A DNA stretch of 64,000 nt. Origin: an uncultured Candidatus Saccharibacteria bacterium. GTDB lineage: Bacteria; Patescibacteriota; Minisyncoccia; UBA6257; 2-01-FULL-56-20. The notes beneath the pieces were generated by a model. That model was given only the letters and a program-made list of their open reading frames with translations, did no database searches and was not told the DNA's origin. The position numbers and the translations under genes were made by a program. Every line of letters begins with the position of its first letter. Position 1 is the stretch's first letter. Location: the NCBI GenBank assembly GCA_964505005.1, contig CAZDFQ010000002.1, positions 92,310 through 156,309 on the forward strand, given 5' to 3'. Of this stretch, positions 51,187 through 62,850 are shown one piece after another.

Positions 51187-51786
51187 ATGGAATCGTTCAT
51201 CTCTCATTATCTTCTGGCTTGGCAGCCGCTCGGCTATCTGCTCGCTTTTTTGGGAATGATTTTGGAAGGCGAAGTTCTCCTGATACTGGCCGGTTTTTTG
51301 ACCAGCCAGGGTTATTTTAATTTTTTTTATATGTTTGCCGCTCTTTTACTGGGAGCGCTGTTTGGCGATTTTTTCTGGTATCGGTTCGGCCACTATCTTT
51401 TCAACACCTCCGGCCTGAAATTTCCAGAATGGCTTCACCGGCTGTCCCATCCTCTGGACATTCATTTGCGGGACCGGCCGAGAAAAACAATTTTCATTTC
51501 CAAATTCGTTTATGGCGCAAACCGCGCGACCTTGATGCGGGCCGGCGCCTCGGGTGTCAGCTTAAAAGATTTTTTTGAAAGCAATGTCTATGCCAATATC
51601 GTCTGGATTATCGTGATCGGCGGCCTGGGCTATTTATTCGGTGCTTCCTTAGCGCTCCTTAAAAAATACATCCGCTTAGCCGAGCTGGTGATTTTGATAA
51701 GCGTAATTATATTTTTGTTCGCCAGCCATTTCCTTGTCCTCAGATACAAGGATAAGCACGAAGAAGATGAATTAGAAAATGGTTAA
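51187..51786 (+). CDS. DedA-family (SNARE-associated/TVP38) membrane protein
   Basis: ISKFVYGANRATLMRAGASGVSLKDFF core motif; 4-5 TM. Confidence 0.75.
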   Translation: MESFISHYLLAWQPLGYLLAFLGMILEGEVLLILAGFLTSQGYFNFFYMFAALLLGALFGDFFWYRFGHYLFNTSGLKFPEWLHRLSHPLDIHLRDRPRKTIFISKFVYGANRATLMRAGASGVSLKDFFESNVYANIVWIIVIGGLGYLFGASLALLKKYIRLAELVILISVIIFLFASHFLVLRYKDKHEEDELENG

Positions 51787-53050
51787 AACGAAGCATCCTG
51801 GGAACTTTTGGCGAGCACTCGGCCCGGGCCTGATTACCGGCGCTTCGGATGACGACCCCTCGGGGATTCTGACCTATCTTCAGGGAGGCGCGGTGCTCGG
51901 CTTCGGCGCGCTCTGGACCGCTTTGGTTACTTTGCCGATGATGTACGCGGTTCAGGAAATGGCTGGCCGCATCGGTTTGGTGACTCAAAAAGGCCTGCTC
52001 AGAATCATTAAAGAAAATTATTCGAGAAAAATTCTTTTCCTCATCGCTTTTATTTCGATTGTTGTCATCACCATCAACATCGGCGCGGACCTCTTGGCTA
52101 TCGGCGTGGCGGTCCAGGGGCTGGCGCCGGTCAGCAATTTAATCCTTTTGCCGCTGGCCGCTACCATCATTCTTCTCGCGGTGATATTTTTTTCCTATCA
52201 GCGTTTTGCCGGCATTCTCAAATGGCTGACTTTAACTCTTTTTTTCTATGTTTTAGCAGTTATTTACTTGAAAATCGATTGGTCGGTGGCTCTTAAAGCC
52301 ACGCTTATTCCGAGAGTGTCGTTTTCTTTGGAGAATGCTTTTCTGCTCGCGGCGATTTTCGGCACCACTGTTTCCCCCTATCTTTTTTTCTGGCAGGCCA
52401 ACGAGGAGATAGAAGAGAAAGAGGAAAAAAGGCGCGACAAGCCAATTCGCCGGCTGCTCATCACCAAGAATGAACTTAAAAATTTAAAGGAAGACACTTT
52501 TATCGGCATGCTTTTTTCCAATGTTGTTACCTGGTTTATCTTTGCCGGCGCGACCAAGCTTTTTCAAACAACTAACTCAACTGCCGGCCTGGCGACTTTC
52601 CAACAGGCCTCGCTGGTTTTGAAACCGCTTCTCGGCGATTTCGCCTATCTGGCTTTTACTTTGGGAATAATCGGCACTGGATTTCTCGCGATTCCGGTGT
52701 TAGCCGGCAATATCGGCTATATGTTCGCCGAAATTTTCGATTGGCCCGAGGGCATAAATAAAAAATTCCACGAAGCCAGAGGATTTTACATCGCCATCGT
52801 CTCAGCCACGATTTTGGGAATGTTCATTAACTTCTTCCGCTTTGACCCGATAACCCTTCTCATTTACACCGCGGTCCTTTATACTTTCATAACTCCGCCG
52901 ATAATTTACATAATTCTTAAAATTTCCAATAACAACGAACTTATGAGGGGCCGCATCAATTCGGCCGCTTCCAACATTTTGGGAGCGATAACCCTGGCGA
53001 TTTCTTTATTGCTGGCCGTATTTTATCTGATACTCGCTTTTCGGAAGTAA
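51779..53050 (+). CDS. NRAMP-family divalent metal (Mn2+/Fe2+) transporter
   Basis: ALGPGLITGASDDDPSGILTYLQGGAVLGFGALWTALVTLPMMYAVQEMAGRIGLVTQKGL matches the Nramp consensus (GPG...DPGN...Q.GA..GY.LLW...MxxxxQxxxxRLG.VTG). Confidence 0.8.
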   Translation: MVKTKHPGNFWRALGPGLITGASDDDPSGILTYLQGGAVLGFGALWTALVTLPMMYAVQEMAGRIGLVTQKGLLRIIKENYSRKILFLIAFISIVVITINIGADLLAIGVAVQGLAPVSNLILLPLAATIILLAVIFFSYQRFAGILKWLTLTLFFYVLAVIYLKIDWSVALKATLIPRVSFSLENAFLLAAIFGTTVSPYLFFWQANEEIEEKEEKRRDKPIRRLLITKNELKNLKEDTFIGMLFSNVVTWFIFAGATKLFQTTNSTAGLATFQQASLVLKPLLGDFAYLAFTLGIIGTGFLAIPVLAGNIGYMFAEIFDWPEGINKKFHEARGFYIAIVSATILGMFINFFRFDPITLLIYTAVLYTFITPPIIYIILKISNNNELMRGRINSAASNILGAITLAISLLLAVFYLILAFRK

Positions 53051-54376: not shown

Positions 54377-54778
54377 ATGGTTAAATCCTGGACATCAATC
54401 ATTTTATTTATAAGTTTTGCGGGAATCGCGGTACTTGGCGCTCTGGCTATGAATCATGTGGGGAATGCCTATCATGGCTGCCTGGCGGCCACGGCTGGCG
54501 TGACCTCCTGCGCCAATGAAAACAATCCCTTCGCCTCCGCTATTTTTCACCTCGATGTCTTTAAAAGTTTTTCCACGGCAGCCGTTGTCAGTTCAATTAC
54601 GCTTCTTCTGGCAGCCGCTCTTCTGTTTGCTTTCTGGTTGATTTTTGACGTAAATCTTCCGGTGGCCGCCGGACAATCTTTTTCGCTGCTCCTAAAACCC
54701 GAGCCGGACAATCCTCCTTTCAAGAAACATTTCATCCAGTGGCTGGCTTTCCACGAGAACAGTCCGACGACTAAATAG
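54377..54778 (+). CDS. Hypothetical membrane protein (2 TM, Cys/His-containing loop)
   Basis: SIILFISFAGIAVLGALAMNHVGNAYHGCLAATAGVTSC... Confidence 0.35.
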   Translation: MVKSWTSIILFISFAGIAVLGALAMNHVGNAYHGCLAATAGVTSCANENNPFASAIFHLDVFKSFSTAAVVSSITLLLAAALLFAFWLIFDVNLPVAAGQSFSLLLKPEPDNPPFKKHFIQWLAFHENSPTTK

Positions 54779-54936
54779 GGGCGCCTTACTTCAGAGCGAC
54801 ATTCGTCGAGTTCTCTCTTGGAGGCGCCTTTCCATCCCCATTGAAAGGGGATTTTTGTTGTTTCAAATCAAGTCAACTTAAAATAATTAATTCGGATGGG
54901 CGTATCCGTAGCGCGCTATTCGAATGCCAATCAATC

Positions 54937-55440
54937 ATGAAAAACAATATAATTATACTTATACTTGTCATCACGGCAGCCGTTGTCGGATTCATTCTCT
55001 GGAATGGAAAGTCGTCTAGACCGGCAGAAACCGTCAACCTTATAACCGGCCTTACTTCGGCTAATTTAAACGAAGCGATTCCGGTTTATGATTTCGGTTC
55101 GGTGTCAATGTTCAAAGGCAATGTCGAACACGACTTCGCCGTCAAAAACACGACCGACAGCGAGCTTCTCGTAACCGGCGCGGAAACATCCTGCATGTGC
55201 ACGCGGGCGGTCTTGAAACTGCCGGACGGTCGGGAGATGGGCCCCTTCGGGATGCCGGGCCACGGCTTCAATCCCTCGCTCAATGTTAACATCAAGCCAG
55301 GAGAGTCATTAGTAGTCAGAGCTATTTTCGACCCGGCGGCTCACGGCCCGGCCGGCGTCGGCTTAGTGGAACGGCAGATTCTTCTTTCGACTAACAAAGG
55401 TCAGCTCATGATGCAATTCCGCGCCCAAGTAACACCATGA
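54937..55440 (+). CDS. DUF1573 domain protein (membrane-anchored beta-sandwich with SCxCT motif)
   Basis: YDFGSVSMFKGNVEHDFAVKNTTDSELLVTGAETSCMCTRAVLKLPDG...IKPGESLVVRAIFD matches DUF1573 (FDFG...SCGCT...PGE). Start at the ATG 54937. Confidence 0.6.
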   Translation: MKNNIIILILVITAAVVGFILWNGKSSRPAETVNLITGLTSANLNEAIPVYDFGSVSMFKGNVEHDFAVKNTTDSELLVTGAETSCMCTRAVLKLPDGREMGPFGMPGHGFNPSLNVNIKPGESLVVRAIFDPAAHGPAGVGLVERQILLSTNKGQLMMQFRAQVTP

Positions 55441-56231
55441 CGAACAATCTATTTCGAAGCAAGCTTTTTTGGCTTGGCTTGGCAGTAGTCCTTTTAATCG
55501 GCGCCGGCTTGTTTTTGGGCTCAATGGCCAGCGCGCCGCTCCTCTATAAATTCTCCAATTCCGGTACCTGGTTTATACCGCTTTTAGTGGCCGCGGCGGT
55601 TACTGACAGCATTAACATCTGCGCTTTCTCGGTCTTGCTGCTGACCGTGGCTTTCCTCATCAGTCTCGGCCGAGTCCGGACCAGCATTATGAAAATCGGC
55701 TTCAGCTACATCGCCGGCATCTTCATTGTCTATCTGCTTATCGGCTTAGGCATTCTCCAGGCGCTTCACCTCTTCAACACCCCGCACTTTATGGCTAAAG
55801 TCGGCGCGACGCTTCTTATCGTTCTGGGAGCCATTAACATCATCAATGAATTTTTCCCGGCCTTTCCTCTAAAATTGCGCCTTCCCCAGGCGGCCCACGG
55901 CAAAATGGCCGAGCTCATGGAAAAAGGGTCAATGCCAACGGCCTTTCTTTTGGGAGGTCTGGTCGGTCTTTGCGAGTTTCCTTGCACCGGCGGTCCTTAT
56001 CTGATGGTCTTAGGGCTTCTTCACGATAAAGCCACCTACTTCAAGGGAGTTGCTTATCTCTTCCTTTATAATCTCATCTTCATTCTGCCGTTAGTGGCCA
56101 TCCTGATTCTGGCGAGCAACAAGGATTTGCTCGGCAAGGTGCAGGAATGGAGAAAGGTCGAAGCCAAAAATATGCGGTTCTGGATAGGCATCGCAATGAT
56201 TGTCTTGGGCCTGCTTATTTTTGCGCTGTGA
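55437..56231 (+). CDS. ccdA: Cytochrome c biogenesis protein CcdA-like (DsbD-family transmembrane thiol-disulfide transporter)
   Basis: DSINICAFSVLL and GLCEFPCTGGPYL (the two conserved Cys in TM segments); 6+ TM. Confidence 0.75.
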   Translation: MTNNLFRSKLFWLGLAVVLLIGAGLFLGSMASAPLLYKFSNSGTWFIPLLVAAAVTDSINICAFSVLLLTVAFLISLGRVRTSIMKIGFSYIAGIFIVYLLIGLGILQALHLFNTPHFMAKVGATLLIVLGAINIINEFFPAFPLKLRLPQAAHGKMAELMEKGSMPTAFLLGGLVGLCEFPCTGGPYLMVLGLLHDKATYFKGVAYLFLYNLIFILPLVAILILASNKDLLGKVQEWRKVEAKNMRFWIGIAMIVLGLLIFAL

Positions 56232-56423
56232 TATGAAGCTTCGCTTCATCATTTGGTTCACCCGGCAATCACAAGAATCTTTTTGTTCTTGAGTTGCCTC
56301 GTTGCCAAATGTAGAATTAAATATAATGCGAATGGCGCGAATTCTTATGCGAATGTTGCGAATATTTTAATAAACCCCTCTGCGGTTATTCGTATCATTC
56401 GCACACATTCGTAAATTGGCATT

Positions 56424-56945
56424 ATGTTAATTATGGACGCCAATTCACAAAAATACCAAGAGCTGATTAAAAAAATCGAGGCGCTTAAAAAATCGGACAA
56501 GGTCGATTTGTCCACGGACGAGGACTTGAGCTTGGCGGTGATGAACCTGATTAGCCTGGAAGAACATTTTTTCTTCACCGCCGAAAAGACCGGTAAAGGA
56601 GAGTATCTTGATTTGCTCAATGAGGTACGGGCGCTGCGGAAATCATTGCTGGCTCGTTTGATTGACAAGCACGAAGGCGAAACCTGGTGCGCGAGCAAAC
56701 ATTTGCTGGCCGCGACCATGCGGTTGCTCGAAGTCGGCACCAAACTGCATTCGGACAATAAAAAGAAAGAAGCTAAAGAAATATTCGATTATGCCCATCG
56801 TTTGTATTCCATTTTCTGGGGGTTGCGCTTGAAACTTCTTGATACCAAAGGATTAAGAGAAGCAGCTGCCGAATCGGCGAAGGCGGACAAACCCTGGACT
56901 CTCGAAGATATCGTCAATAAACTGGTTGACTGTTGCGATGAGTGA
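56424..56945 (+). CDS. Hypothetical cytoplasmic helical protein
   Basis: No motif recognised. Confidence 0.35.
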   Translation: MLIMDANSQKYQELIKKIEALKKSDKVDLSTDEDLSLAVMNLISLEEHFFFTAEKTGKGEYLDLLNEVRALRKSLLARLIDKHEGETWCASKHLLAATMRLLEVGTKLHSDNKKKEAKEIFDYAHRLYSIFWGLRLKLLDTKGLREAAAESAKADKPWTLEDIVNKLVDCCDE

Positions 56946-57034
56946 TAAAAAATCAAAAATCCCCGCCTGCGCCGACCCGCACTTCGCCGTTGACTTCAGC
57001 AGGGAGAGGGCTTCGGCGGGCAGGAAAAATCAAA

Positions 57035-57412
57035 ATGCAAAATTACAATTCAAAATTTAAAATTTTAATATTTTTAATTGTCATTTTAATCTTTGCATTT
57101 TTATTTTTGATTTGGCAGCGAGGTAGCGGCACGGCACCGCAGAATTTACTCGACTCTCTTGCTAAATGTCTGGCCTCGAAGGGTATAACAATGTACGGCG
57201 CCTATTGGTGCCCGCATTGCCAGAACGAGAAAGCAGCTTTCGGCAGTTCGTTCAGATATATTCCCTATGTGGAGTGCGCGGAAAATCCGCAAAAATGTCT
57301 GGAGGTCGGCATCAAGGGTTATCCAACCTGGATTTTCTCGGATGGCCGGCGCTTTGAAGGCGAGCAAGGGCTTCAGCGGCTGGCGCAGGAAAGCGGCTGC
57401 CCATTGCCGTAA
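57035..57412 (+). CDS. Membrane-anchored thioredoxin-fold protein (WCPHC active site)
   Basis: TM ILIFLIVILIFAFLFLIW, then MYGAYWCPHCQNEKAAFG (CxxC). Confidence 0.7.
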   Translation: MQNYNSKFKILIFLIVILIFAFLFLIWQRGSGTAPQNLLDSLAKCLASKGITMYGAYWCPHCQNEKAAFGSSFRYIPYVECAENPQKCLEVGIKGYPTWIFSDGRRFEGEQGLQRLAQESGCPLP

Positions 57413-57442
57413 AATCACGAATCACAAATCATAAATCACGAA

Positions 57443-58447
57443 TTGAGAATTATGGAAAACGATATTCAAAAACCTGAAGAAAAGAGAAAAAATGGCTTCT
57501 TGCTGCCGCTAAGCATTCTGCTTTCAACGTTTATCCTTGCCGGTGCCTGGATTTACACGACTGGTTTGAAAACAGCCAAAGTCGGGCAGCGGCCTTTGGC
57601 GGCGGCCAATGTCCAGCAATCTCTGCTGGAAGGGAAATTATTGCCTTCTCAAGGAATTGTTCTACCGGTTCGCTGGGGCGATTCGGGTGCGAAGCTCGTA
57701 AAAGCCGGCGTAATTGATGGTGGGAAATTCGAATCGCTCTACAATCGGCAGGGAGAAGAAAGCAAACGAAGTTTGTTTTCGGCGAGCGAACCGATTGATG
57801 AAGCGGAAGCTTCATACGCGAATCGTTCGGTTTCTCTCAATGAGCTCAGGCGATTGCTCTACGGAGAGGATAATGGCAATTTAAAAATTACCCGGGAAAA
57901 TTCCGGAATCATCGTCAATCTTCTGTGGGCTTTAGGTCTGGGTAACAAAAACGCGATTTTGGAGAGGGGGCCGATGGCTGACCCGCGTTATATTACTGCT
58001 AATTTCGCTTCCACCGGCGGCTGGACAATTGCCAAAGGCAGCGCGATGGAACATTACAGCAAACATGAGTTTGTTACTTTAACGCCAGAACAGCAGGCAT
58101 TGGTAGAAAGAGTCAGTCAAAATATCTATCGGCCGTGTTGCGACAATGCCACTTATTTTCCGGACTGCAACCACGGGATGGCCATGCTCGGCCTGCTCGA
58201 GCTGATGGCTTCGCAAGGCGTTTCCGAGGAGGAAATGTACCGGGCAGCGCTTAAAGTAAATTCGTTTTGGTTTCCGGATGTTTACCTGACGATTGCCAAA
58301 TATTTTGAGTCAAAGGGGATTGATTGGAGCCAGACGGATTCCAAAGAGGTCTTGAGCTATAATTTTTCGAGTGCCAGCGGCTACCAGCGGATTTTGAGCC
58401 AGGTCGCGCCGCCGGAAATCAATTCTAGCAGCGGTTGCGGCGTCTAA
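57443..58447 (+). CDS. Membrane-anchored Cys-rich extracytoplasmic protein of unknown family, paralog A (YRPCCDN...DCNHG...C-terminal GCGV)
   Basis: TM LLPLSILLSTFILAGAWIY. Homologous over about 250 aa to the C-terminal half of 60946-62436. Confidence 0.5.
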   Translation: MRIMENDIQKPEEKRKNGFLLPLSILLSTFILAGAWIYTTGLKTAKVGQRPLAAANVQQSLLEGKLLPSQGIVLPVRWGDSGAKLVKAGVIDGGKFESLYNRQGEESKRSLFSASEPIDEAEASYANRSVSLNELRRLLYGEDNGNLKITRENSGIIVNLLWALGLGNKNAILERGPMADPRYITANFASTGGWTIAKGSAMEHYSKHEFVTLTPEQQALVERVSQNIYRPCCDNATYFPDCNHGMAMLGLLELMASQGVSEEEMYRAALKVNSFWFPDVYLTIAKYFESKGIDWSQTDSKEVLSYNFSSASGYQRILSQVAPPEINSSSGCGV

Positions 58448-58528: not shown

Positions 58529-58912
58529 ATGGATTTCGATTATACAGTTAAAACTTCAAAAGCTTTTGATTCAGTCGTGAAAGCGGTGGAAGAAGAAACC
58601 GCCAAAGCCGGCTTCCGGGTTTTGTATATCCACGATGTCCAGAATGCTTTGGCGGAAAAGGGTTTTGAAATCGAGCCGTTCAAAATCATCGAAATCTGCA
58701 ACGCCAAATCCGCTTATGCCGTTTTGAAAGCCGATATTAAAATCGGGCTCTGCCTGCCCTGCAAAATCAATGTCTATGTCAAAAACGGCGAAACTTACAT
58801 TTCCGGAATGCGGCCGCTTGTCCTCAAGCAGTTTTTCCCGGCTGCCGATTTGGGTGACCTGCCGGAAGAAGTGGACCGCCTTATCAGGTCAATAGTAGAT
58901 AATTCAAAATAA
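58529..58912 (+). CDS. DUF302 domain protein
   Basis: FDSVVKAVEEETAKAGFRVLYIHDVQNALAEKGFEIEPFKIIEICN matches DUF302. Confidence 0.7.
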   Translation: MDFDYTVKTSKAFDSVVKAVEEETAKAGFRVLYIHDVQNALAEKGFEIEPFKIIEICNAKSAYAVLKADIKIGLCLPCKINVYVKNGETYISGMRPLVLKQFFPAADLGDLPEEVDRLIRSIVDNSK

Positions 58913-58975
58913 TATATACTATGAAAAATACCTGCGGCATTTTTAAAGGTCGAATCAAAAACATTCGATTGTCTT

Positions 58976-59251
58976 ATGGAGCTTGACAAGAATAAATTCG
59001 CCTTGGCAGCCAGCGCAGCGCTGGGAATAGTCTATGTCGTCTGCGCCGTGTTCGTGACGCTCTGGCCGGATTTTTCTTTGAAGCTTTTCGGCTGGCTGGT
59101 TCATCTGGTCAATGTCGACAAGTTCGCCGGTGGCGTGGCGGTAACCGCTTCCGGATTGATTATCGGCTTGGTTCAGGTGTTGGTTTACTCCTATATTATC
59201 GGTTATCTTTTCGCCTGGCTGCATAACCGGTTTCTGAAACCGCGCCCCTAA
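58976..59251 (+). CDS. Small 2-TM membrane protein (hypothetical)
   Basis: LAASAALGIVYVVCAVFVTLW and ASGLIIGLVQVLVYSYIIGYLF. Confidence 0.4.
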   Translation: MELDKNKFALAASAALGIVYVVCAVFVTLWPDFSLKLFGWLVHLVNVDKFAGGVAVTASGLIIGLVQVLVYSYIIGYLFAWLHNRFLKPRP

Positions 59252-59267
59252 GCAGAAAACAACTTAG

Positions 59268-60131
59268 ATGGAACTACTTTTAAGCGCATCGCTCGTGGCG
59301 GCTTTCGTGGCGGGGGTGGCGGCTCTTTTCGCGCCCTGCTGCATCACGGTTCTTCTGCCAGCTTATCTCGCTTCCATTTTCCGGGAACGGTACAAAGTGT
59401 TTTTGATGACCTTTATATTTTCTCTCGGGATACTGGCGGTGTTCCTGCCGATCGGCCTGGGAGCAGCGGCGCTGGGACAATTCTTCAGTCAATATCACAA
59501 CGTCATTTTCGGTGCTGGCGCGGTTTTCCTGATTTTGCTGGGGTTTATTCTCCTAACCGGCAGTCACTTTTCACTGCCGTTCCGGGCCAACCCCTCTCTT
59601 AAAAAGCACAATGCCCTTTCTGTTTTTGTTCTGGGCGCCTTTTCCGGAGTGGCGACCGCTTGTTGCGCTCCGGTTTTGGCAGGGGTGTTGGCTCTGGCGG
59701 TTTTGCCCGGCTCTATATTGTGGGGCGGGCTTTACACTTTGAGTTATGTTTTCGGTCTGGTCGCGCCCCTCTTCTTCCTGTCTCTTGTTCTGGATAAGAC
59801 AAATTTTACCCAGAAGTTCAGCAGCGTCTTCCGGAAGCCGCTGGAATATTCGGTTGGTGGAAGGAAGTTCAGTATCGCAGTTTCCGAAGCAATCTCTGGT
59901 ATCACTTTTTTGGGAATGGGGACATTGATTCTTTATCTGGCCTTGACAAACAAACTTTTCGTTCATTCTGAATATCAGGTAAGCATCAATATATTTCTTA
60001 CAAAAATTTTGAATTCGGTGAATGGTTTTATAAAGGTCGTACCCGAATTTGTTTGGGCGGTTCTCTTGGTCGCAGCAATCGCCCTCCTCATCAGCCGCGT
60101 CAGGTCCCTGCTTCGGAAGGAAAAACTTTAA
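59268..60131 (+). CDS. DsbD_2/CcdA-like transmembrane protein with paired Cys motifs (second paralog in the island)
   Basis: LFAPCCITVLLPAYL and GVATACCAPVLAGVLALA. Confidence 0.6.
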   Translation: MELLLSASLVAAFVAGVAALFAPCCITVLLPAYLASIFRERYKVFLMTFIFSLGILAVFLPIGLGAAALGQFFSQYHNVIFGAGAVFLILLGFILLTGSHFSLPFRANPSLKKHNALSVFVLGAFSGVATACCAPVLAGVLALAVLPGSILWGGLYTLSYVFGLVAPLFFLSLVLDKTNFTQKFSSVFRKPLEYSVGGRKFSIAVSEAISGITFLGMGTLILYLALTNKLFVHSEYQVSINIFLTKILNSVNGFIKVVPEFVWAVLLVAAIALLISRVRSLLRKEKL

Positions 60132-60266: not shown

Positions 60267-60893
60267 ATGAAAAAGAACGCAACAACAATAGCCTCCGTCA
60301 TAGTAGTCATTCTGGTTGCGGGAGCGTTGCTTTATATTGGTGGCGGAAATAAATCATCCACCACTGCCCAGCCCTCCGCCCTCGACTCCAGGTATAGCGG
60401 AACAGCGAATGTTCCCTACGCGTCATTGAATAACCTCGTTGGGAAACCGGTGCCGGCCTTCTCGCTGGCGGACGGCAGCGGTAAGATTTACTTGTCAGAC
60501 AGCTTGCGCGGTAAGAAGACCGTTCTTTTTTTCACGGAAGGGCTGATGTGTTACCCGGCCTGCTGGAATCAGATTGTCGCCTTTACCAAGGACGTGCGCT
60601 TCAGGGATAGCAACACCCTGGTGCTTTCAGTGGTCGTTGAGTCAAAAGAAGATTGGCAGAAAGCAATCAACCAGATGCCGGAGCTGGCTCAGGCGGCGGT
60701 ACTCTTTGATAGCGACTCGACCGTATCAAAGCAGTTAGGTATGCTCACGGCGCCCTCTTCAATGCACCCGGGATCGCTGCCGGGCCACACCTATCTGCTC
60801 GTGGATAAAAACGGAATCATCAGATACGTCTTGGACGATCCAACGATGAGTATCCGCAATGATCAGCTGATATCAGAGATAGCGAAATTATAG
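60267..60893 (+). CDS. SCO1/SenC-like copper chaperone (thioredoxin fold, CxxxC + His)
   Basis: TM anchor, then KTVLFFTEGLMCYPACWNQ (CxxxC as in Sco CPDVCP) and ...GHTYLLVDKNGIIRYV (the conserved His / LxDxxG block). Confidence 0.55.
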   Translation: MKKNATTIASVIVVILVAGALLYIGGGNKSSTTAQPSALDSRYSGTANVPYASLNNLVGKPVPAFSLADGSGKIYLSDSLRGKKTVLFFTEGLMCYPACWNQIVAFTKDVRFRDSNTLVLSVVVESKEDWQKAINQMPELAQAAVLFDSDSTVSKQLGMLTAPSSMHPGSLPGHTYLLVDKNGIIRYVLDDPTMSIRNDQLISEIAKL

Positions 60894-60945: not shown

Positions 60946-62436
60946 CTATACTCCGCAGCCGGCGCCGCCCTGCTTTTGCGGCAAAAGACCGGGGTTTTTG
61001 GCAATAATCTCTTGAAACGGCTGGCCGATATTTTTTGCCCAGCCGGGGCCACTCGAATAGTTAAAGCCCATAATTTCTTTGGAATTGATATCTTCCCAGG
61101 CGGTGTTTTTGGCGAGTTTGTAGTAAAGCGCGGTCTCAAGGTAGATTTGCGGAAACCAGAAGGAATTGAACCGCAATGCGACTCGGTAGAGTTCTTCTTT
61201 GGAAAGCCCTTGCGAGGCGCCGAGTTCGATTAAACCTAAAAGAGCTGAGCCGTGGTTGCAGTCTTGAAAGAAAGTTGAGTTGCCGCAGCAGGGTCGGTAA
61301 GTGTTTTGCGCGACCTCTAAGGCAAGCGCTTCCTCGCTCGGCGTGAGCTTTACGATATTGAATTTGTTGAAATATTTGCCGCCGTTGTCTTCTTTGCCGA
61401 GCGTCCAGCCGCCGGTGGAGGCGAAATTGAAAAGGGAGTCGCCGTTGACCGGACTTTTTTCGTTAAATTGGGTTTTATTGGCAAGCCCCATGGGCCAGAG
61501 GAGGTTGACCAAAAGGCCGGCATTGGCGGCATCTATTTTTAGCGGTTCGCCTGAGGGTTGGCTGAGAATCAGAAGTTCCTTTTCGTTTATACCGCGGCCG
61601 GCGTAAATCTTCCGGAATTTTTCAGGGTCAATGACGCCGTTTTCTACCAGTTTGACGATGGCGTCGCCGAAAACAATTCTCGTCTGAAATCCAGCCGGCG
61701 GCAGCACCTTGGCGACGACTTCGTCGTAGAGAGTGCTGCCGGTTTTGGCGTTTTGAGTATTCTGGATTCGGTTCATAAGAAGCGTGCCGTTTTTTGCCGC
61801 TGCGCTGGCTGCAACCTGTTCTTGATTCCAAAGCGGCATTGCCAAAAAAAGAATCAAAAATAGAACCGCCAGAAGCGTCGGATAAGATAACAATGAGTCG
61901 GCTTTCGCGGGAGCAGTCGCTGCCGCCTCAGGTTTTACTTCGCAGGTTTCGCAATTTGCCGCGCCAGACAATTTTTTTGCGGATAGTGCCAGTGCGACTC
62001 CGAAAAATGCCGCGCTCAAAAATTTCAGCTCCAGTCCTTTGAGAGGCAGAATGGCAACGCCGCCGGCAATACCGATTACCGAAAAAAGAAACGAACCGCA
62101 AATAGGGCAAGCCGCGGCAAAGGCTCCGAAGGTAGCGCCAAAGACATTGCCTCCCTGGGCTTTAATGCTCTTAAGTTTGGAATGTTGCCACGAATACACC
62201 GCGATCGCCAGGCTCATTCCGAAGAGCGCCACACTCAAAAGCGTTAAGATAACATACGGCCAGAAGTAGAGCGGAACGCCTCTATACATTGAATAGAAAT
62301 TCACCCAGGTGGTGGTTTTGGAGAGCAGCCACCAGTAAAGAAGGCCGAGACCAAACGCTCCGTCAATCGCAACCAGTAGATAGAGCGGCTTCCGGAAGAT
62401 GATTTTTACAACTGACGAAAATGTTTCATGCGCCAT
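60946..62436 (-). CDS. Polytopic membrane domain (CPICG motif) fused to a Cys-rich extracytoplasmic domain, paralog B of 57443
   Basis: N-terminal ~200 aa with multiple TM segments and CPICGSF. The C-terminal half carries YRPCCGNSTFFQDCNHGSALLGLIELGASQG...GCGV, aligning with paralog A. Confidence 0.5.
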   Translation of the reverse strand: MAHETFSSVVKIIFRKPLYLLVAIDGAFGLGLLYWWLLSKTTTWVNFYSMYRGVPLYFWPYVILTLLSVALFGMSLAIAVYSWQHSKLKSIKAQGGNVFGATFGAFAAACPICGSFLFSVIGIAGGVAILPLKGLELKFLSAAFFGVALALSAKKLSGAANCETCEVKPEAAATAPAKADSLLSYPTLLAVLFLILFLAMPLWNQEQVAASAAAKNGTLLMNRIQNTQNAKTGSTLYDEVVAKVLPPAGFQTRIVFGDAIVKLVENGVIDPEKFRKIYAGRGINEKELLILSQPSGEPLKIDAANAGLLVNLLWPMGLANKTQFNEKSPVNGDSLFNFASTGGWTLGKEDNGGKYFNKFNIVKLTPSEEALALEVAQNTYRPCCGNSTFFQDCNHGSALLGLIELGASQGLSKEELYRVALRFNSFWFPQIYLETALYYKLAKNTAWEDINSKEIMGFNYSSGPGWAKNIGQPFQEIIAKNPGLLPQKQGGAGCGV

Positions 62437-62577: not shown

Positions 62578-62850
62578 ATGCTGGACAAGAAATTGAAGAA
62601 AAGGTCTATTCACCGCGCGAAAATCATTCGTGGCCAGGTGGACGGCCTCATTAAGGCCGTCGAAAAAGAAGTGTACTGCCCCGAGCTTTTGGCCCAGTCG
62701 CTGGCCATTCAAAGGTCGCTCAAAAGTCTTGACGCCTTTCTTCTGGAGAATCATCTCCGAACCCATGTGAAGCGCCAATTGGGCCGCCGCGGCGGAGAAG
62801 AAAAGGCCGTCAGAGAATTAATCAGGATTTATACGTTGTCAAACAAATAA
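62578..62850 (+). CDS. csoR: CsoR/RcnR/FrmR-family metal-sensing transcriptional repressor
   Basis: RAKIIRGQVDGLIKAVEKEVYCPELLAQSLAIQRSLKSLDAFLLENHLRTHV: the conserved Cys in the alpha2 helix and His in the alpha3 helix, typical of CsoR. Confidence 0.7.
   Translation: MLDKKLKKRSIHRAKIIRGQVDGLIKAVEKEVYCPELLAQSLAIQRSLKSLDAFLLENHLRTHVKRQLGRRGGEEKAVRELIRIYTLSNK

Follow-up and report, generated by a model that had tools for sequence, protein, structure and literature searches.

Extracytoplasmic thiol relays and the CcmH scaffold are both known as such. The copper-linked Scs system of the envelope uses a DsbD-family reductase with Ig-fold carrier domains, which feeds Cu(I)-binding periplasmic Cys proteins (PMC10907172, PMC8900818, PMC3322552). 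The CcdA1-Etrx1-MsrAB2 system of Streptococcus pneumoniae joins a CcdA protein, a surface thioredoxin-fold protein and a membrane-anchored terminal acceptor (PMC3914529). CcmH is a three-helix thiol oxidoreductase outside the thioredoxin fold with an LRCxxC motif between helices 1 and 2, and its nucleophile is the second, exposed Cys of this motif (PMC3884852). We analyse here a stretch of 64,000 nucleotides (the window) from an uncultured Candidatus Saccharibacteria bacterium (contig CAZDFQ010000002.1, positions 92,310 to 156,309), in which two open reading frames (ORFs), ORF A and ORF B, encode members of one family of cysteine domains. Our preferred reading, with a probability of about 0.4, is that the family domain, tethered to the membrane, exchanges thiols outside the cytoplasm as the last member of an envelope relay that is fed by CcdA and linked to copper stress. 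New here would be the architecture, the lineage and the copper context in which a thiol relay and a CcmH scaffold appear.

The bacteria of the Candidate Phyla Radiation (CPR) account for a large part of bacterial diversity, have tiny genomes and are taken to have a single membrane. To our knowledge, they lack respiratory chains, and the majority of their conserved surface proteins are without an assigned function. The present family occurs in hundreds of species, with an invariant set of four Cys and one His and a fixed operon place near copper export genes. It is large, sharply conserved and experimentally tractable. If its domain is a CcmH-derived thiol/copper module, a fold so far met with only in cytochrome c maturation gains a second role, and this in organisms without candidate cytochromes c in the regions examined. 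The family would then be a testable entry to copper and oxidant protection of the exposed envelope in ultra-small episymbiotic bacteria.

Two paralogues and their invariant cysteines

A comparison of ORF A with ORF B by BLASTP shows 114 identities over 284 positions (40%, E=6e-66), residues 65-334 of ORF A aligning to residues 243-496 of ORF B. This similarity is far beyond chance and confirms that ORF A and the C-terminal half of ORF B are paralogues, as a preliminary description of this DNA had claimed. Every motif block quoted there is found in both proteins. NSGIIVNLLW of ORF A corresponds to NAGLLVNLLW of ORF B, FASTGGWT and NSFWFPxxYL are common to the two, the Cys/His block reads YRPCCDNATYFPDCNHGMAMLGLLEL in ORF A and YRPCCGNSTFFQDCNHGSALLGLIEL in ORF B, and both end in GCGV. 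The topology described there is also present, with a single transmembrane (TM) segment in ORF A (residues 20-42) and a polytopic N-terminal domain bearing CPICG (residues 110-114) in ORF B. Basic residues precede the anchor of ORF A, and therefore the remainder of the protein is predicted to face outward. A hydrophobic N-terminal anchor is found in 77 of 80 relatives. In the public gene model ORF A starts at ATG 57452 and encodes 331 residues, and this ATG is the probable true start.

ORF A has exactly four cysteines, 232, 233, 242 and 332, and ORF B has eight, 110, 113, 162, 165, 383, 384, 393 and 494. All of them fall in the motifs described in this work (Table 1). The four of ORF A and the matching four of ORF B are invariant across the family, which we sampled with 105 diverse members that are 32-56% identical to ORF A. 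Invariant in this set (ORF A numbering) are A189, R230, C232, C233, N235, D241, C242, N243, H244, G245 and C332, and W162, T191, W194, N273 and S310 are almost invariant. The CC...DCNH motif is found in 141 of 150 family representatives; the remaining nine look truncated or garbled. The C-terminus follows the consensus [GS]-C-[GS]-[VAI], with the Cys at position -3 in 77 of 81 locus-encoded members and, in the four exceptions, at -4 or in a duplicated tail. C-terminal swinging arms are known from the high-Mr thioredoxin reductase (GCUG) and from mercuric reductase MerA (CC). As in these enzymes, the distance of the family's Cys from the C-terminus is constant, and the Gly/Ser tail that bears it is flexible. 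Unlike them, the family has a single Cys and an unrelated fold, and no selenocysteine variant of the motif or tail is found in the 83 loci searched. ORF A alone carries an insertion of 30 residues (105-134), which is acidic and Ser-rich.

Searches of Pfam and NCBIfam give no match for ORF A, ORF B or their separated domains even at E<=10. The family domain itself is also without a match when the 105 members are scanned, and a profile built from the family alignment finds nothing in the PDB at E<=10. Thus the statement that the domain fits no known family stands. The sequence-database search proposed along with it reveals a large family. More than 6294 clusters at 90% identity match ORF A, and the named ones are all "hypothetical protein" of Patescibacteria. 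An exhaustive profile search gives 751 clusters at 50% identity (E<=1e-3), 291 of them at E<=1e-30, and at least 588 relatives are confirmed in GTDB contigs, which hold one genome per species. The 80 loci that were kept are all from CPR bacteria, namely Paceibacterota/Parcubacteria groups, Uhrbacteria, Peribacteraceae and others. Some representatives (P0209, P0217, P0246 and others) are rich in Ala, Arg and Pro and apparently come from GC-rich DNA. A literature search finds nothing relevant on the family, on "CcmH-like" proteins or on CPR bacteria with CcdA or CsoR.

Fold match to CcmH and a conserved gene order

Structure prediction, also proposed in the preliminary description, gives AlphaFold2 models for both proteins. 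The mean predicted local distance difference test (pLDDT) for ORF A is 81 with a predicted template modelling score of 0.77; its core (65-320) is mostly above 85. For ORF B the pLDDT is 85.8 and the family domain exceeds 90. In both models the C-terminal tail is disordered. The only specific structural match of the family domain is CcmH, a thiol:disulfide oxidoreductase (PDB 2HL7, 2KW0; PF03918), and the redox-type module of the family is modelled as the same three-helix bundle as CcmH/NrfF. The match is thus to a redox family, and no confident match to a family of non-metal, non-redox function is found. A global Foldseek search against the PDB gives no match below E=2. Readings of the domain as a cysteine peptidase or a cell-wall enzyme were dropped because no such fold is found among the structural matches.

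Alignment by hhalign of a CcmH profile (120 sequences) with the family profile (residues 205-305) scores 21.7 (P=0.0018) in the same register as the structural match. In 300 column shuffles 21.7 is reached once (mean 11.4, standard deviation 2.4). In this register helix 1 falls on helix 1, P231-C232-C233-x-N235 of the family on P-K-C28-Q-N of CcmH, D241-C242-N243 on D-S-N, and G-x-S-E-E-E-M on G-K-S-D-x-E-I. In particular, C233 falls on Cys28, the exposed nucleophile of CcmH. With this fold match and register, the family appears to keep the CcmH scaffold with a rebuilt centre. Judged from the aligned sequences, the first Cys would have moved beside the second to give a vicinal Cys-Cys, a Cys-x-His would be new at the N-terminus of helix 2, and a tail Cys would have been added.

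The two families are alike in several respects. Both have a three-helix bundle with a reactive Cys loop between helices 1 and 2, and the R, P, C, N ... D-x-N and G-x-S-x-E-E positions keep one register. CcmH is membrane-anchored and extracytoplasmic, as is predicted for the family. It works beside CcdA/DsbD and a CcmG-like redoxin, both of which are encoded near the family genes. They differ in that RPCC stands in place of LRCxxC, that the Ser of D-S-N has become a Cys, with Asn and an invariant His after it, and that the C-terminal swinging Cys is found only in the family. In addition, the anchor of the family is N-terminal and the module follows a subdomain of about 150 residues without a known fold.

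To describe the gene neighbourhood, ORFs were called in 83 related loci and clustered, and the cluster representatives were annotated. Counts of upstream genes refer to the 70 loci with at least 3.5 kb upstream of the family gene. This gene is the last of a conserved co-directional array, c2 > DUF1573 > CcdA > c6/c7 > (Trx) > family, and the window matches this order exactly from 54377 to 58447. A DsbD/CcdA-type transporter, as in Scs-like systems, is found no more than 3.5 kb upstream in 57 of the 70 loci, and the CcdA cluster has two near-invariant Cys, both in PC motifs. The small membrane protein c2 has been assigned to no family and could be a metal-binding or sensing component. DUF1573 or a redoxin is observed in 57 of 70 loci, an AhpC/TSA-type redoxin (CYPAC...H) taking the DUF1573 slot beside CcdA in several genomes. 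Besides its invariant Cys motif, the DUF1573 protein bears the Met/His motifs G-M-P-G-H and D-P-x-A-H-G-P. DUF1573 is among the families with selenocysteine members, in a UGC motif, which suggests a redox-active centre (PMC9312934). It may take the role of the Ig-fold carrier of DsbD-alpha.

The slot before the thioredoxin or family gene (in relatives, e.g. L077:4503-4967) holds c6 or c7 in 38 of 70 loci. c6 is a four-TM protein with CPICAG that ends in CC. c7, which is unrelated to c6, has about 165 residues and bears a conserved EGETWC as well as CCDE at its C-terminus. No match to either protein is found in Pfam or the PDB. The thioredoxin-like protein is homologous to the Trx-like domain and linking TM helix of the Synechococcus VKOR (3kp9, E=3e-24), and it has no VKOR domain.

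Wider counts refer to the 28 loci flanked by 8 kb or more on each side. A CopA-type ATPase is found in 23 of these and a CsoR-family repressor in 16. One or more of CopA, CsoR and HMA-DsbD_2 is present in 27 of 28. The ATPase of the related loci bears CPC, YN(x)4P and MxxSS, which we take to be the Cu(I) signatures of P1B-1 ATPases.

The architecture of ORF B is found in about 17 of the 150 representatives. These fusions have an intramembrane A-C-P-[IV]-C-G, an outer-loop G-L-E-x-K and usually a cytoplasmic CxxC. Two other representatives join the family domain to a c6-type CPICAG...CC protein (P0151) and to a c12-type membrane protein with an intramembrane CC (P0158). Rhodanese is fused to three members, and HMA, cupredoxin and DsbC_N to one each. 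The fusion partners are thus Cys-bearing membrane modules, sulfur/thiol domains or copper domains.

Proposed role and its alternatives

In the relay that we propose, a CcdA-type transporter would carry reducing equivalents over the membrane, and small carriers with Cys motifs (DUF1573, the redoxin or the VKOR-type thioredoxin) would hand the electrons on. The family protein at the cell surface would reduce or resolve thiols oxidised or bound by copper, as in the Scs and CcmG/CcmH systems. Its C-terminal part would be a diverged CcmH-type three-helix oxidoreductase in which a vicinal Cys-Cys is joined by a Cys-Asn-His where the second helix begins. The invariant Cys on the flexible C-terminal tail would act as a swinging arm that shuttles between this centre and partners or substrates. 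In ORF B the module may be wired straight to the membrane domain of the same protein, whose Cys motifs are an intramembrane CPxC and a cytoplasmic CxxC. The paralogy, the conservation, the fold match, the gene order and the fusions are observed, whereas which way the electrons flow, what they reduce and how copper stress comes in are our inferences. A metal-binding or thiol-active function, as the preliminary description had argued, is supported by the CcmH fold match, the CcdA operon, the CopA/CsoR neighbourhood and the HMA, cupredoxin, rhodanese and DsbC_N fusions.

The relay resembles described systems in part. As in Scs/CueP of Salmonella, Proteus and Caulobacter, copper and thiol genes are adjacent: CcdA, the Ig-like DUF1573 and the redoxin adjoin CopA and CsoR. 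Unlike Scs, in which the terminal component has the thioredoxin fold, the terminal protein here is helical and CcmH-like without homology to ScsC or CueP, and the thioredoxin-fold partners are separate genes. The hosts differ as well, being CPR bacteria. The adjacency of CopA and CsoR is the one line that points to a role in copper tolerance or regulation, and for regulation it is that of CsoR.

Several points weigh against the proposed relay. Residues 65-212, about 150 of the domain, match no known fold. The homology to CcmH has modest sequence support, the hhalign probability being low, and Pfam CcmH (PF03918) is unmatched at E<=1 in all 105 members. The closeness of the four Cys and the His to one another is presumed. 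No CopA is found within the window. The thioredoxin next to ORF A belongs to the type that partners VKOR and is oxidative in cyanobacteria, and therefore the reductive direction of flow is a proposal. Simple Cu(I) binding would account just as well for the Cys3-His cluster, for the fusions to HMA and cupredoxin and for the linkage with CopA and CsoR. The function of the family is throughout one that we infer.

The domain could accordingly be a chaperone or sink for Cu(I) or another soft metal, a possibility that we hold tentatively and regard as nearly as likely as the relay. Cys-Cys, Cys-x-His and the tail Cys would form the Cu(I) site, copper would arrive from CopA export or from thiol-lined membrane modules such as the CPxC of ORF B and c6, and the CcdA/Trx relay would do no more than hold the ligands in the reduced state, a role proposed for Scs towards CueP. 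Invariance makes C232, C233, C242, H244 and C332 plausible ligands. The neighbouring copper genes and ATPase signatures given above, together with the HMA and cupredoxin fusions, are consistent with this. CPx metal sites are a feature of P1B ATPases, and the CPxC of ORF B, modelled at an intramembrane helix break, resembles them. There is also a precedent, since ScsC and ScsB bind Cu(I) and hand it to CueP (PMC10907172). Against it, the sole fold match is a redox enzyme and not a metallochaperone, and no homology of the domain to a known chaperone fold or motif (HMA/CopZ, CueP, CusF, CopL) is found. The invariant Arg, Asn and Asp are inherited active-site positions of CcmH, rhodanese and DsbC_N are non-metal fusion partners, and it is CcdA, encoded in the same operon, that is most tightly linked to the family, not CopA. 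A terminal reductase of a non-protein or damaged-residue substrate (sulfoxide, sulfenate, persulfide, polysulfide or metalloid) is unlikely. It would be fed by CcdA and thioredoxin like pneumococcal MsrAB2, with the tail Cys as resolving cysteine. MsrA has such a C-terminal resolving Cys on a Gly-rich tail, which the tail Cys of the family resembles. The layout of CcdA, a Trx-like protein and a membrane-anchored terminal protein matches the pneumococcal system (PMC3914529). The conserved polar and aromatic residues N235, D241, N243, W162, T191, W194, N273 and S310 suggest a pocket, and the three rhodanese fusions would fit. However, the family is unrelated to Msr with no link to methionine sulfoxide visible, it has no similarity to any known reductase fold except CcmH, the neighbours give no clue to a substrate, and the copper linkage would stay unexplained.

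The type of the adjacent thioredoxin suggests instead an oxidative, disulfide-forming pathway in quinone-poor CPR cells. There the domain would re-oxidise the VKOR-type thioredoxin or would itself serve as a DsbA-like oxidant, possibly with copper. The thioredoxin is indeed close to the DsbA-like Trx domain of the Synechococcus VKOR and is without a VKOR domain. However, it is present in only 7 of 70 loci, against 57 with CcdA, CcmH acts reductively, and CcdA-type proteins are known as importers of reductant (PMC3884852). We thus consider this pathway quite improbable. A genuine CcmH/NrfF orthologue serving cytochrome c maturation, for which the fold match and the nearby CcdA and CcmG/DsbE-like redoxin would speak, is essentially excluded by the data. 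The CXXC motif is missing in all 105 members, whose loop holds Y-R-P-C-C-x-N, with only the second Cys aligning, and the Pfam profile never matches. No CXXCH is found in the 88 ORFs of the window, and among the 1549 neighbour proteins of the 83 loci it occurs in five, all singletons. Ccm and Res families are absent from the recurrent neighbours of the related loci. The motif, profile and cytochrome c tests having failed, we therefore call the family "CcmH-like" and not CcmH. The likeness lies in the fold and probably extends to the chemistry.

The ORF B-type fusions point to a possible new transmembrane thiol relay. Thiol-lined membrane modules are known in which DsbD-beta/CcdA carry electrons and MerT/MerC/MerF carry Hg. 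The ORF B N-terminal domain and c6 are alike to these in having intramembrane and cytoplasmic Cys pairs, and are fused to, or encoded beside, an extracytoplasmic Cys domain. No homology of either to DsbD-beta/CcdA or to MerT/MerC/MerF is detectable. A BLASTP comparison of the ORF B N-terminal domain with the c6 protein finds nothing beyond the four-residue motif CPIC, so no homology is claimed between them. A wider reading takes the family as a new CPR-specific extracytoplasmic thiol/copper machinery with a CcmH-derived vicinal-Cys/Cys-His centre and a swinging Cys. The ORF B type would be a self-contained transmembrane relay that moves electrons or Cu(I) from a cytoplasmic CxxC via the intramembrane CPxC to the surface domain, unrelated to DsbD/CcdA, VKOR/DsbB and P-type ATPases. 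We regard this as doubtful.

Features of the window and neighbouring genes

Table 1. Positions of the family members, their motifs and the surrounding genes in the window.
Feature	Position	Strand	Remark
c2, small two-TM membrane protein, conserved M-x-H...C...CP...H	54377..54778	+	52/70 loci
DUF1573 protein, Ig-like	54841..55440	+	49/70 loci; invariant T-S-C-M-C-T
CcdA/DsbD-type membrane thiol transporter	55437..56231	+	57/70 loci
c7, soluble protein ending C-C-D-E	56424..56945	+	slot before Trx/family gene
Membrane-anchored thioredoxin-like protein, WCPHC	56942..57412	+	7/70 loci
ORF A	57443..58447	+	334 aa, family member, predicted single-TM and extracytoplasmic
ORF A, N-terminal membrane anchor, residues 20-42	57500..57568	+	basic residues before segment
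ORF A, specific insertion, residues 105-134	57755..57844	+	missing from all homologues; low model confidence
ORF A, CcmH-like three-helix module, residues about 213-290	58079..58312	+	
ORF A, motif Y-R-P-C-C-x-N-x5-D-C-N-H-G	58127..58177	+	C232, C233, C242, H244
ORF A, disordered C-terminal tail, ends S-G-C-G-V	58406..58444	+	Cys332 3 residues from C-terminus
DUF302 and two-TM DUF5676	58529..59251	+	between ORF A and second CcdA
Second CcdA/DsbD_TM protein	59268..60131	+	
Membrane-anchored AhpC/TSA-Redoxin protein	60267..60893	+	C-Y-P-A-C and downstream His
ORF B	60946..62436	-	496 aa, polytopic N-terminal domain fused to family domain
ORF B, tail ...G-C-G-V	60949-60987	-	
ORF B, family domain, residues 240-496	60949..61719	-	
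ORF B, Cys/His motif	61249-61299	-	
ORF B, five-helix N-terminal membrane domain, residues 1-215	61792..62436	-	
ORF B, C-E-T-C	61942..61953	-	predicted cytoplasmic loop before last TM helix
ORF B, intramembrane C-P-I-C-G	62095..62109	-	helix break in TM3, modelled
CsoR/RcnR-family repressor	62578..62850	+	C-H-H fingerprint; divergent from ORF B

Among the neighbouring genes, the labels thioredoxin, CcdA and CsoR of the preliminary description are retained. The gene labelled Sco there scores as AhpC/TSA-Redoxin, and what it has of Sco is a Sco-like CxxxC...H motif only. Among proteins of solved structure, peroxiredoxins and CcmG/DsbE are its best relatives. Its conserved CxxxC (C-Y-P-A-C) is unusual and, like a downstream P-G-H-T, reminiscent of Sco. 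The pair of second CcdA and redoxin recurs in relatives, and DUF302 and DUF5676, as clusters c19 and c16, are found again in the metal islands of related loci. The relatives of the CsoR-like repressor are split between the C-H-H fingerprint seen in the window and the canonical Cu(I) fingerprint C-H-C. No convincing inverted repeat of a CsoR-type operator is found upstream of the operon or in the 141-bp divergent region between ORF B and csoR.

Overlapping frames directly upstream of the operon (51187-53050, + strand) encode a membrane protein of the VTT/DedA type and a divalent-metal transporter of the Nramp type. They add metal-handling character to the region and are not kept beside the family in other loci. 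Two Logan contigs, L084 and L085, carry an identical ORF A and are independent short-read assemblies of the same organism. L084 ends inside the ORF B region and L085 earlier, within the DUF302 gene; the paralogous domain may be the cause of these assembly breaks.

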